In this document: one piece after another, positions 8,210 to 10,863 of the stretch
Position numbering within the stretch: position 1 is the stretch's first letter
How the letters are laid out: every line of letters starts with the position of its first letter
Assembly (NCBI GenBank): GCA_944362705.1
Contig: CALVTO010000002.1
Location: forward strand, 140,818 to 204,817
DNA from: an uncultured Clostridia bacterium
GTDB taxonomy: Bacteria > Bacillota > Clostridia > Christensenellales > UBA1242
Length of the DNA: 64,000 bases
Direction: 5' to 3'
Translations under genes and position numbers: made by a program
Notes under the pieces: generated by a model
Told to the model about the DNA's origin: nothing
The model's database searches: none
What the model saw: only the letters and a program-made list of their open reading frames with translations

Positions 8210-8214
8210 AAAAA

Positions 8215-8238
8215 GAAAGGCAAAAACGCCTTTCTTTT
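8215..8238 (+). terminator. Intrinsic terminator of nifJ
   Basis: Hairpin GAAAGGC-aaaaac-GCCTTTC followed by TTTT, 6 nt after the stop codon. Confidence 0.7.
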
Positions 8239-8421
8239 CATGTTTTTTATTTACATATGATTTACCAGAATATGTATATAATTTTTCTCACAAAATCATT
8301 TTATTATATTTTCATCAATGAAAACAACCTTTGCATACATAAGAAAGAAAACTTACAAAAGAATACTTTTTTACAAGAAAACACCCGAATTTCGACAATT
8401 TATTTTTGGTATATTTTCTTA

Positions 8422-8555
8422 TAAATGCAGTATACTATTACCAGAACCGGATAACTCCATGGGACGATAACCCACCGGTTCTCGCTTCCTTTTATTTTAA
8501 AAAAAGTTCGTTTTCGCTTTTCCGGACTTTCCCACCGATTTTCGGTGGTTTTTTT
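8422..8555 (+). ncRNA. Candidate small RNA / structured element (unclassified)
   Basis: An extended -10 (TGGTATATT) lies at 8407-8415. An 8-bp stem AGAACCGG/CCGGTTCT (8443-8450/8475-8482) is followed by a T-rich run, and the element ends in a strong plus-oriented terminator. No RBS-bearing ORF is present. Confidence 0.3.
8532..8555 (+). terminator. Plus-strand intrinsic terminator ending 5 nt from the convergent 108-aa ORF
   Basis: Hairpin CCACCGA-ttt-TCGGTGG followed by T7. The T-run is on the plus strand only. Confidence 0.65.
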
Positions 8556-8559
8556 ATGG

Positions 8560-8886
8560 TTAAATTGTTTTGATGGCTTCCCCGCCTGAAAAACCTGGTA
8601 GCGAACCTAATTTTAGTAGCATTTCCCATGGGGAATCTTCTTCTTGAATTCCCGCCATTTGGGCAATATCTTTTCTGTTTTGTGCTATACTAACCCACCT
8701 AGCAAATTCTGGGAACAACGTTTTTGATTGTTTATTGACTGAGCCCCATAAAGTATAGTCTACACAACCTAAACTTTTTTTCTTGCATAGTTGCTCTTGT
8801 TGAGGGTTTGAGTTGTATACATACATACCGTTTTCATAAGATAAAACACCCATGCAACAATTGTACTGATATAACTCTATTTTCAT
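8560..8886 (-). CDS. HipS-like protein (resembles N-terminal subdomain 1 of HipA)
   Basis: 108 aa. The pattern MKIELYQYNCCMGVLSYENGMYVY...TLFPEF...EMLLKLGSLPGFSGGEAI parallels HipA N-terminal / HipS sequences. An ATGA start-stop overlap with the upstream kinase ORF and an AAGGAGG RBS sit inside the kinase 3' end. Confidence 0.5.
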   Translation of the reverse strand: MKIELYQYNCCMGVLSYENGMYVYNSNPQQEQLCKKKSLGCVDYTLWGSVNKQSKTLFPEFARWVSIAQNRKDIAQMAGIQEEDSPWEMLLKLGSLPGFSGGEAIKTI

Positions 8887-9911
8887 CTTGCCCGCCCCTC
8901 CTTTTCTTGTAAATAATTTTCTGTATGTTTTTGCAATAACTTAAATAATCGTTCAACGCGATTGGTAAAAATAAATTGCGCATCTGTTTTTAAAAAAGCT
9001 TCGTTTTCACTCAAACCTGCTTTTGCACATGCTTTTTCTACAACATTTTCACCACGAATTTTATTGATAAAAAAGCTTTGCAATTCTGGATTTTGTAACA
9101 CAAGTTCTGCCAACTCATCTTCAAACGTCTCTAACATACCTTTTTTAGGAATCATGGTCCAAGCTCCGCTTGCTTGTTGGTATTTATCACATATTGTACA
9201 TGTGGATATACCTAACATTGGAGCGCATCTGTTAAATATGTTGTCTATCAAACCATATGGCCTTCTTGTATTGATGCTTTGTTCGGCCATGGTTTTTAAG
9301 TAAGTTGTTGAACGGTTATATTTAAAACAATTTCCATTGTCGTAAATTTGCGCTGGTATAAGTTTACCCTCTTCATTCACTAAAAATGTGACGTTGTATG
9401 CATGCCTATCCATCTGTCCGGTTAAATAATCTATTAAACACATTTTCTTTAACTGCATCATACAAGACTCGTCAATTTCTATTTCTGAGTTGTTTTGTTT
9501 TAAATTGTTTAAAGCCGCCTCATAACTATGTAACGTATTTTTTATACCTATTTCTTTCCCATTTTCATTATCATAAATAAAATTGCGGTAACCAATAAGT
9601 AGCGTGGCCCCACTAATTTCTACATATTTTTTAGGGTTATAGTCTTTTGTGATAACGCCATGGACTTCTACACCATTTTCTACAAAACTTGCTAAATGGT
9701 ACTCCGCGCATGGCAACCCAACCTGCCGACAAATTTCATAATATAAAATTTCACCAATATCTTCACAAGTATTATCTGCACTATTTTGCTTAAACAACCA
9801 TCTACCATCATCACGGTTTAAAAATTCAAACCAAAATTTTGCTCGCTTGCCACGTTGTTCTACACTGTTTTCTTTTACAATGTTTTGTGGCATAATATGT
9901 AATCTTTCCAT
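8883..9911 (-). CDS. HipA_C-like Ser/Thr kinase domain protein lacking the N-terminal subdomain
   Basis: 342 aa. It has a GKRAKFWF loop near the N-terminus, the catalytic motif D168-R-H-A-Y-N173 (LIDYLTGQMDRHAYN) and Y-D191-N-G. A GGAGAA RBS precedes the start. Confidence 0.65.
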   Translation of the reverse strand: MERLHIMPQNIVKENSVEQRGKRAKFWFEFLNRDDGRWLFKQNSADNTCEDIGEILYYEICRQVGLPCAEYHLASFVENGVEVHGVITKDYNPKKYVEISGATLLIGYRNFIYDNENGKEIGIKNTLHSYEAALNNLKQNNSEIEIDESCMMQLKKMCLIDYLTGQMDRHAYNVTFLVNEEGKLIPAQIYDNGNCFKYNRSTTYLKTMAEQSINTRRPYGLIDNIFNRCAPMLGISTCTICDKYQQASGAWTMIPKKGMLETFEDELAELVLQNPELQSFFINKIRGENVVEKACAKAGLSENEAFLKTDAQFIFTNRVERLFKLLQKHTENYLQEKEGRAR

Positions 9912-9928
9912 ATGTTTCTCCTATAAAA

Positions 9929-9957
9929 ACTATACAAGTAAACCGATATTTTGTCAA
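9929..9957 (-). promoter_or_regulatory. Sigma-A type promoter of the kinase/HipS-like bicistron
   Basis: On the minus strand: TTGACA (9952-9957), 17 nt spacer, TATAGT (9929-9934). Confidence 0.6.
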
Positions 9958-9960
9958 TAC

Positions 9961-9987
9961 AAAAAAATGCACCATTTGGTGCATTTT
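9961..9987 (-). terminator. Intrinsic terminator of the 84-aa ORF, insulating it from the kinase operon
   Basis: The minus strand reads AAAATGCACC-aaat-GGTGCATTTT followed by TTT. It overlaps the stop codon of the 84-aa ORF. Confidence 0.65.
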
Positions 9988-10240
9988 ATCTTCCCATACC
10001 CATTTCTTGTTGCTCTTGCTGTTCTTTATACCTTTTTGTGCGTTTATCAACAGTATGCGCATCTTCATATGCAATAGCGGCATCTCGCTGTGCAATTATG
10101 CGATTTAAACGACGGCGATACGCCTCTTCACTACTGCGCATATCTTCCACCTCGGTACGACGCTTTACATATACTCCGGCATCGATCCAAGATTTTCTCG
10201 AATTTACTTTTTCATCTAAACGATTTGAATTTATGCTCAT
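9986..10240 (-). CDS. Small basic helical protein, function unknown
   Basis: 84 aa with a GGAG RBS (AACAGGAGTGAATTATG). It is flanked by its own promoter and terminator. No recognisable HTH. Confidence 0.5.
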   Translation of the reverse strand: MSINSNRLDEKVNSRKSWIDAGVYVKRRTEVEDMRSSEEAYRRRLNRIIAQRDAAIAYEDAHTVDKRTKRYKEQQEQQEMGMGR

Positions 10241-10261: not shown

Positions 10262-10289
10262 ATTATAGCATACAAGCATATTCTTGTAA
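10262..10289 (-). promoter_or_regulatory. Promoter of the 84-aa ORF
   Basis: On the minus strand: TTACAA (10284-10289), 16 nt spacer, TATAAT (10262-10267). Confidence 0.5.
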
Positions 10290-10314
10290 ATATTCTTTTT
10301 GAAACTTTTTACTA

Positions 10315-10863
10315 TTATTTTTTTTGCCCATTGTGCACCGTTTGGTATTGAGACAATTTCCTTAATACTTCACTGCAAGCACGCATAGCGCTCATGTTAC
10401 TTACATTTACTGTTATTTCTGCAAATCTTTTGCAATTTTGCATGCGTCGTTCAATTTTTTTTCTTGCTATGGCGTATAATCTTTTTTCTTCTGCGGTTGC
10501 ATAAGTTTGCTGATGTGTTTTTGCGTATACGGTTTCTAAAGGCAAATGCAAATACACAAATATTGTTTGGTACTTCATTGCTTTGCAATTACGTACCTTT
10601 TCGACGCTACCCGATTCAAAACACATGACTGTGTTTGTAAAACTAGAAGCATATTTTATAATTTCTTTTTCTTTTTTTCTGTAATATTTTTCACCATAGT
10701 TTTTTAAAAGTTCTTGTAAAGAACGTGGTTGATGATCGAATAAAAATAGGTCTTCTGCATTAAAGTAAAACATTTGCAAACGCTTTGCTAATTCTTCCGC
10801 CACTGACTTACCCATAGGGTTATACAAACAAACAATACTTAAACTATCCACGGAAAGCATCAC
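10315..10863 (-). CDS. Shikimate-kinase-like P-loop protein with degenerate active-site motifs
   Basis: It aligns by eye along the whole AroK fold (IVCLYNPMGKSVAEELAKRL..., VYLHLPLETVYAKT). However, the Walker A is YNPMGKS instead of GxxGxGKS, and the GGG shikimate loop is replaced by ESGS. Confidence 0.55.
   Translation of the reverse strand: MMLSVDSLSIVCLYNPMGKSVAEELAKRLQMFYFNAEDLFLFDHQPRSLQELLKNYGEKYYRKKEKEIIKYASSFTNTVMCFESGSVEKVRNCKAMKYQTIFVYLHLPLETVYAKTHQQTYATAEEKRLYAIARKKIERRMQNCKRFAEITVNVSNMSAMRACSEVLRKLSQYQTVHNGQKK

Follow-up and report, generated by a model that had tools for sequence, protein, structure and literature searches.

To our knowledge, Hip kinases are a paradigm of persistence and toxin-antitoxin biology, and all the experimental knowledge that we are aware of comes from the HipBA and HipBST systems; the architectures lacking a helix-turn-helix (HTH) protein, namely hipJS, hipIN and hipL, remain predictions as far as we know. 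Here we describe a two-gene unit from a 64,000-nucleotide stretch of DNA (hereafter the window) of an uncultured Clostridia bacterium. The unit encodes a 342-residue kinase and a 108-residue partner protein; it belongs to the HipA kinase superfamily, is bicistronic, has no HTH gene and shows the hipJS/hipIN architecture. Coordinates are positions in the window unless the label of another locus precedes them, and all features of the module lie on the minus strand.

The closest described systems come from the survey of Gerdes, Baerentsen and Brodersen (mBio 2021; PMC8262856), in which ten Hip gene organisations were defined. Those most similar to the present unit are: 1) hipJS, a short kinase with a downstream HipS and no DNA-binding partner, which accounts for 2 of 1,239 modules; and 2) hipIN, a kinase with a downstream HipS-HIRAN protein (HipN), represented by 14 modules (PMC8262856). 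An origin of hipJS from hipIN by loss of the HIRAN domain is a speculation of the same authors (PMC8262856). As a DNA-binding neighbour was generally required in the selection of modules (PMC8262856), the HTH-less modules, which look rare, may have been under-sampled. A full-text literature search recovered no later paper that uses the names hipJS or hipIN. In the HipBST systems of E. coli and Legionella, the sole tested systems with a separate domain of this kind, HipS is the antitoxin, and the HipT-type core kinases are toxic in its absence (PMC10627512, PMC9325769). HipS occupies the place of N-subdomain-1 of HipA, and its Trp65 keeps the Gly-rich loop of the kinase in an outward, inactive position (PMC10627512).

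In the window, the kinase gene (8883..9911, 342 amino acids (aa)) is followed directly by the gene for the small protein (8560..8886, 108 aa), and the two open reading frames (ORFs) overlap by an ATGA stop/start motif (8883-8886). This 4-nucleotide (nt) overlap is identical in the related loci L001-L004. The Shine-Dalgarno sequence of the small ORF (AAGGAGG, 8903..8897) is buried within the 3' end of the kinase gene, with the ATG following 10 nt on, while that of the kinase gene (AGGAGA, 9922..9917) ends 5 nt upstream of the ATG at 9911. The overlap and the internal Shine-Dalgarno sequence indicate that the second gene is translationally coupled to the first. Upstream of the kinase lies a sigma-70-type sequence, TTGACA-17-TATAGT (9957..9929), which matches the consensus at 11 of 12 positions and, on this consensus match alone, is a plausible promoter of the unit; promoter-like sites in general show no enrichment, with six found against 9.4 expected from shuffles. 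Terminator-like sites are enriched (seven found versus 1.2 expected), and an intrinsic terminator with a 10-bp stem followed by a T-run (9987..9964) stands ahead of the kinase promoter, directly after an 84-aa ORF that is discussed further below. No clear minus-strand terminator lies 3' of the small ORF; the T-run of the hairpin there (8532-8548) belongs to the plus strand. Profile searches detected no HTH domain in the 342-aa, 108-aa or upstream 84-aa ORF. The kinase and partner genes retain their synteny in L001, L003 and L004, and the ratios of nonsynonymous to synonymous divergence (dN/dS) of 0.1-0.2, with values of about 0.2 for the kinase and 0.10-0.18 for the partner, indicate purifying selection; both ORFs are therefore real genes. 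A first-pass annotation, made from the letters of the window, had placed both ORFs where we find them and had noted the overlap, the buried ribosome-binding site, the promoter and the upstream terminator, all of which are present, and its description of a translationally coupled pair with no HTH gene, set among housekeeping genes, holds as well.

By its sequence, the 342-aa protein is a core HipA_C-family Ser/Thr kinase that has intact catalytic residues and lacks N-subdomain-1. It matches the Pfam family HipA_C (PF07804) over residues 21-208 with 38.4 bits (cut-off 30.5; E 1.3e-9) and the PADLOC family PDC-M03A over residues 12-203 only (E 1.2e-23), and its C-terminus extends for about 130 residues beyond both matches. 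The kinase signatures pointed out in the first-pass annotation are all present, namely the Gly-rich loop G21-K-R-A-K-F-W-F28, the catalytic motif D168-R-H-A-Y-N173 and the motif Y190-D191-N-G193; D191-N192 are the Mg-binding residues, and K41 is the ATP-binding Lys. These motifs are invariant across seven homologues, and even relatives with no more than 23-27% identity retain K41, D161, D168-R-H, N173 and D191-N192 without exception. As the Gly-rich loop starts at residue 21, the N-subdomain-1 of HipA, which comprises about 100 residues, is absent from the kinase. When the profile of the kinase family was compared with the sequences of the PDB, it matched CtkA (3akj, 1.3e-5) and the HipT protein of Legionella (1.3e-3), the former match being confined to the catalytic core (profile positions 102-233). 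The earlier recognition of a HipA_C-type kinase devoid of N-subdomain-1 is borne out by these results.

For the 108-aa protein, sequence methods alone proved insufficient. It has no match in Pfam, including Couple_hipA (PF13657), or in NCBIfam, so that the Pfam comparison places the kinase and leaves the small ORF unassigned. Searches against the sequences of the PDB, with the single sequence as well as with a profile hidden Markov model, returned chance matches only and no HipS or HipA chain, while a profile of the classical HipA N-subdomain, used as a positive control, does retrieve the HipS chains. Comparison by hhalign of the small-protein family with the alignment of the classical HipA N-subdomain likewise gave a probability of 2.7%. 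The HipS-like nature of the protein is instead supported by its predicted fold and by a profile link through HipN. An AlphaFold2 model built on a 66-sequence alignment has a predicted local distance difference test score (pLDDT) of 94.5 and a predicted template modelling score of 0.87 (a run with three sequences reached only a pLDDT of 53). In a Foldseek search of the PDB with this model, the matches at ranks 1-16 are all either HipS (7ab3, 7vkb, 8ezr) or the N-domain of HipA (7czo, 2wiu, 4pu4, 3tpe and others), with template modelling (TM) scores of 0.46-0.61 over the full length and probabilities of up to 1.00; the best match is 7ab3_E (E 1.7e-3, probability 1.00, TM 0.58/0.61). As modelled, the 108-aa protein has the HipS / HipA N-subdomain-1 fold. 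The viral fold library BFVD contains no viral protein with this fold.

The profile link begins with PADLOC PDC-M03B, which the small protein matches with E 0.0026 over positions 18-104 of the 248-position profile. PDC-M03B is the sole PADLOC family that recurs among the members of the small-protein family (13 of 66), and the Pfam family that recurs most often is Couple_hipA, although weakly (5 of 66, best E 0.006). With the N-domains of HipN-type proteins, taken from seven HipS-HIRAN proteins on viral contigs, the family aligns in hhalign over 90 columns (E 2e-6, probability 89%), and these HipN N-domains are in turn weakly related to the classical HipA N-subdomain (E 2.6e-4). The small protein therefore looks like a HipN-type HipS-like domain that lacks the HIRAN domain. 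Thus, the proposal of the first-pass annotation that the 108-aa ORF is HipS-like stands with respect to fold, whereas at the level of sequence no significant similarity to HipS, to the classical HipA N-subdomain or to Couple_hipA goes with it. A residue-level mapping of Glu63 and Trp65 of HipS onto the partner was rejected, because the transitive hhalign alignments contradict the naive motif match.

An exhaustive HMMER search recovered 87 representative clusters of the small-protein family, nearly all of them stand-alone proteins of 102-125 aa. Fusions of the HipS-like domain are rare. One such protein (P0087, 309 aa) has an N-terminal Tpt1/KptA RNA 2'-phosphotransferase domain (PF01885, E 1e-22) and another (P0065, 399 aa) a Sel1 repeat, and P0026 (269 aa) and P0050 (299 aa) have additional C-terminal regions with no Pfam match. 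As the domain is fused to other modules, it may regulate or dock effectors besides kinases.

Comparison with the described systems indicates how the unit is to be classified. Like hipJS, it combines a short core kinase, which lacks N-subdomain-1 and has its Gly-rich loop near the N-terminus, with a HipS-only gene immediately downstream and no DNA-binding gene, and hipJS modules are likewise predicted toxin-antitoxin modules. It differs in that hipJS-group kinases are, by the published description, 279-321 aa in length, compared with 342 aa here and 340-392 aa among relatives. It also differs in its partner, which in sequence resembles only the HipN type, in a profile comparison rather than a phylogeny; the published HipS of hipJS branches with the HipS of HipBST and with the HipA N-subdomain. 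With hipIN and PDC-M03 the unit shares a PDC-M03A-type kinase, a partner that aligns with the HipS-like N-domain of PDC-M03B/HipN, the order of kinase first and partner second, and the absence of an HTH. In the hipIN examples that we collected (L017-L022 and L024) the kinases are 293-311 aa and the partners 230-249 aa long, and the contigs are viral or prophage; in contrast, the partner here has no HIRAN domain and spans 108 aa rather than about 240 aa, the kinase has some 130 extra C-terminal residues beyond the PDC-M03A profiles, and the module occupies a core-chromosome locus. The HipBST systems of E. coli O127 and Legionella pneumophila (7AB3, 7VKB, 8EZR) are alike in pairing a core kinase with a separate protein of about 100 aa that has the N-subdomain-1 fold; the structures closest to the partner model are found among them, and the HipT of L. 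pneumophila is among the best matches of the kinase profile. However, they are tricistronic, with an HTH protein HipB and with hipS upstream of hipT, whereas here HipB is absent and the order reversed; their HipS is recognisable from the HipA N-subdomain profile, unlike the partner here, and the kinase here has no conserved equivalent of the S-psi-S autophosphorylation motif, its S16 being variable among homologues. Finally, among solved structures the kinase-family profile best matches CtkA of Helicobacter pylori (JHP0940, PDB 3AKJ), a HipA-like core kinase that stands alone and, with 325 aa, is close in size to the kinase here. Descriptions of CtkA present it as a kinase that is secreted and acts on the host, and we know of no HipS-like partner reported for it.

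Taken together, these comparisons show that the unit is a divergent member of an already named class (hipJS / hipIN-like) and not a new organisation. The suggestion of the first-pass annotation that the layout might be undescribed must accordingly be given up, as it has been named hipJS, with hipIN as a relative (PMC8262856), and its relatives correspond to PADLOC PDC-M03; the class has a name, but it is not a characterised family.

The association of the small protein with a kinase extends beyond the close relatives of the window: in all six lineages for which genomic context is available, it directly adjoins a HipA_C-like kinase homologue. The kinase precedes the partner in the lineage of the window (the window, L001-L004 and L013-L016), in a Clostridia metagenome-assembled genome (L008-L011), where the kinase has 382 aa and divergent XRE-HTH and M78 peptidase genes lie near, and in the lineage of L012. 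The lineage of L005 (NCBI GCA_964368755.1; L005 4429-6312) has a 392-aa kinase with a HipS-like paralogue on either side, one of 122 aa and one of 103 aa (the E values for the two are 9e-19 and 1e-36), and a Fic-domain gene about 1 kb downstream. The partner comes first in the P0056 / P0096 lineage (L006 6001-6815, L007, and L025 169-1382) and in the P0098 lineage (L026 1110-2536, and L027); in these the HipS-like gene overlaps the kinase homologue downstream, which is recognised by hhalign with probabilities of 93-98%. In place of D-R-H-A-Y-N, the catalytic loops of L025 and L026 have D-C-Y-A-H-N (the contigs of L006 and L007 end before the loop), and the full or near-full-length kinase homologues of these two loci have no match to the PDC-M03A profile. 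The kinase homologues of this partner-first sub-group may have diverged as kinases or may be pseudokinases. The next gene upstream in L006 and L007 is alanyl-tRNA-synthetase-like. Given these several arrangements, the "permuted order" that the first-pass annotation emphasised is not a trait of the family: the kinase does come first here, the reverse of HipBST, but other lineages have the partner first or on both sides.

With regard to function, we lean, by a modest measure, towards the view that the pair is a toxin-antitoxin or abortive-infection-type module in which the partner restrains the kinase. The small protein would bind the N-lobe of the kinase in trans, at the site that N-subdomain-1 occupies in HipA, and hold the kinase inactive; that it inhibits at all is proposed by analogy, because the HipS of HipBST does so. 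Free kinase might then phosphorylate an essential translation factor, the prime candidate being an aminoacyl-tRNA synthetase, and thereby cause growth arrest. As there is no DNA-binding partner, control would fall to the promoter and the coupling, with the near-consensus constitutive promoter setting the level of expression, and translational coupling, rather than autorepression, setting the ratio of kinase to partner.

Several observations weigh against this view. In the survey that named them, the experimental evidence for hipJS and hipIN is entered as "None" (Table 1 of PMC8262856), and PDC-M03 is one of 145 untested guilt-by-embedding defence candidates in PADLOC. In sequence, the small ORF does not significantly resemble HipS, the classical HipA N-subdomain or Couple_hipA; the wedge that Trp65 forms in E. 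coli HipS cannot be mapped on the partner, and the W64 of the partner is not conserved in its family. Nor does a HipS fold by itself imply inhibition, because the same domain is integral to active HipA. In addition, stable vertical inheritance among housekeeping genes with normal GC content is unlike a typical mobile toxin-antitoxin module, and the swapping of kinase alleles against a fixed partner, described below, is not what one would expect of a toxin and an antitoxin in tight co-evolution.

That the fold of the partner is also part of the active HipA enzyme would suit a different role, in which the two proteins form a split HipA holoenzyme: the 108-aa protein would be an obligatory structural or activating subunit rather than an antitoxin, and control would lie elsewhere, for example in autophosphorylation or an external trigger. 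Translational coupling, which would yield roughly stoichiometric amounts of both proteins, is consistent with this arrangement, as are the conservation of the partner alongside widely differing kinase alleles, which a generic structural subunit should show, the free gene order with the partner before, after or on both sides of the kinase, and the fusion of the domain to such unrelated proteins as those with the Tpt1/KptA (P0087) and Sel1 (P0065) modules. Nevertheless, we regard a split holoenzyme as unlikely, since in the tested HipBST systems the separate domain is the antitoxin and HipT is toxic without HipS (PMC10627512, PMC9325769).

The genomic setting of the module bears on its function as well. 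The window represents core chromosome, with ribosomal-protein operons, rpoBC, tmRNA and an L10 leader, and the module belongs to a syntenic block (patatin, MBL, SKI-like, 84-aa ORF, kinase, partner, PFOR, truA and rplM) that persists in L004, where synonymous sites are saturated. Its GC content, overall and at third codon positions (GC3), matches that of the flanks, and no mobile-element genes occur nearby in the window. Recent horizontal acquisition of the module was rejected in view of the flank-like GC and GC3 and the conserved synteny, and the fixed syntenic locus together with the flank-like GC indicates that the module is old and vertically inherited in this lineage. A fixed place in a conserved core-genome block, flank-like GC, the absence of nearby mobile-element genes and purifying selection on both genes would all suit a domesticated regulatory kinase, that is, a non-toxic, physiologically controlled chromosomal signalling module with a host protein as its substrate and no role in addiction or defence. 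We nonetheless consider such a module quite unlikely: old divergent alleles and intragenic mosaics within one species, which are set out next, typify conflict or balancing selection, distant members are found in unrelated contexts beside XRE-HTH and M78 peptidase or Fic genes, and the nearest profile family is a phage-defence candidate (PDC-M03).

Variation among close relatives is concentrated in the kinase. Between the window and L003 the flanking DNA is 93-98% identical and its genes have a synonymous divergence (dS) of 0.04-0.07, whereas the kinases have a saturated dS of about 1.9 and share 52% of their amino acids by alignment columns (54% by BLASTP). The partners of the same two strains are 96% identical in amino acids, and the 84-aa ORFs have a dS of 1.35 with 44% amino-acid identity. 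The hypervariable segment thus comprises the kinase and the 84-aa ORF (8902-10240 in the window versus L003 5201-6644), while the adjacent HipS-like gene is 96-98% identical. The kinases of L001, L013, L015 and L016 are mosaics: the internal blocks that set them apart from that of the window vary from one to the next and fall mainly in the C-terminal half. Likewise, one 90% cluster of the partner (36 members) corresponds to five kinase clusters (of 27, 3, 1, 1 and 4 members). Since the dN/dS of the kinase is near 0.2, these are old alleles shuffled by recombination rather than products of a burst of positive selection. The exchange of kinase alleles over a constant partner fits a role in conflict or defence, and the pattern suggests that it is with the N-terminal half of the kinase, the better conserved one, that the partner makes contact.

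The same data, read with the family-wide distribution of the domain, permit a more speculative interpretation, to which we assign only a minor share of the probability: the HipS-like protein might be a conserved generic docking or sensor domain that serves interchangeable, anciently diverged kinase alleles, rather than an allele-specific antitoxin. This idea draws on the fusions to Tpt1/KptA and Sel1 modules, the duplication of the domain around a single kinase and its occurrence on either side of the kinase. If it were true, recombination and balancing selection would maintain the kinase alleles at a fixed core-genome "hot spot", the hypervariable C-terminal half of the kinase would determine specificity, and control would follow a logic unlike that of HipBST; the family would then constitute a distinct branch of Hip systems with neither HIRAN nor HTH, comprising at least 87 clusters compared with the 2 recorded hipJS cases.

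Two neighbouring elements accompany the module in its close relatives. The first is the 84-aa ORF upstream of the kinase (9986..10240, minus strand), which is lineage-specific, highly charged and syntenic with the module. A strong predicted promoter, TTTACA-17-TATAAT accompanied by a TG further upstream (10290..10262), and a terminator belong to this ORF alone. Its homologues all end in EMGMGR, and the L003 allele contains a 28-aa insertion. No significant Pfam family was found for it, the only match being DUF4890 at E 0.035, far below the cut-off. The second is an ultra-conserved non-coding element of about 190 nt on the plus strand (~8366-8556), between the PFOR gene and the HipS-like gene, where it abuts the stop codon of the partner; it recurs in L001 (9342-9552), L003 (6957-7167) and L004 (4799-5009). 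Its segment 8431-8520 is 100% identical to L004, compared with about 70% for neighbouring coding DNA. The element comprises a promoter-like site (8370-8399), two hairpins (one of them at 8443-8482) and the aforementioned terminator (8532-8548), which is followed by seven T and shows a compensatory stem change in L004; the 3' end of the candidate small RNA would fall 4 nt from the stop codon of the partner. Scans for Rfam families and tRNAs gave no match to the element, and the JGI metagenome collection does not contain its core pattern. From these sequence features it looks like an unannotated small RNA gene of about 150 nt, convergent with the module. Between the PFOR terminator and this element, a small local variable region (8212-8340) is unalignable even among the near-identical strains L001 and L003.

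The positions of these elements raise the question of whether one of them, rather than the 108-aa protein, is the real regulator or antitoxin of a three-part system. The 84-aa ORF is syntenic at all close loci and has diverged along with the kinase in L003 (dS 1.35 versus 0.04-0.07 in the flanks), and the non-coding element combines its complete identity in L004 with a position against the stop codon of the small ORF. However, a separate promoter precedes the 84-aa ORF, and a terminator stands between this ORF and the kinase promoter; no homologue of it was found beside the distant kinase modules, and its sequence does not follow the kinase mosaics of L001, L013 and L015. The non-coding element is also missing from the distant module loci, and its predicted pairing to ribosome-binding sites is unremarkable, with the site of the partner ranking 8th of 47. 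A three-part system is consequently very unlikely. The 84-aa ORF was rejected as a general third component, given its transcriptional insulation and the lack of a homologue at distant modules, and it probably stands outside the general components of the module; targeting of the module's ribosome-binding sites by the downstream RNA is unsupported, in view of the rank of the partner's site.

Some further observations concern the surroundings and the host. The shikimate-kinase-like protein next in the block (10315-10863, minus strand) matches Pfam SKI (E 2e-18) but falls far below all NCBIfam shikimate-kinase cut-offs; its Walker A motif looks degenerate (LYNPMGKSV), and it may not be a canonical AroK. 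The host has a GC content of 36.9% and uses TGA as a stop codon. Its ribosomal protein L2 (40254-41081) is the sole member of its 90%-identity cluster, and scans of 185,579 species-representative genomes with the kinase patterns and the conserved non-coding element retrieved none; for these reasons the host appears to belong to an uncultured, poorly represented lineage.

The advance is incremental and would not surprise a specialist. Three additions can nevertheless be made to what has been published: the small partner of an HTH-less module, although invisible to Pfam, is predicted to have the HipS fold; the family of this partner is far larger than the two published hipJS cases; and the order of the two genes is free within the family. 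The main value of the locus lies in the size of this Pfam-less family and in the combination of a hypervariable kinase with an invariant partner. It amounts to a natural experiment, in which several very different kinase alleles are combined with one nearly invariant partner, and this set of alleles could reveal which part of the kinase surface is recognised by the HipS-like domain, and whether this domain serves to inhibit the enzyme or to complete it.

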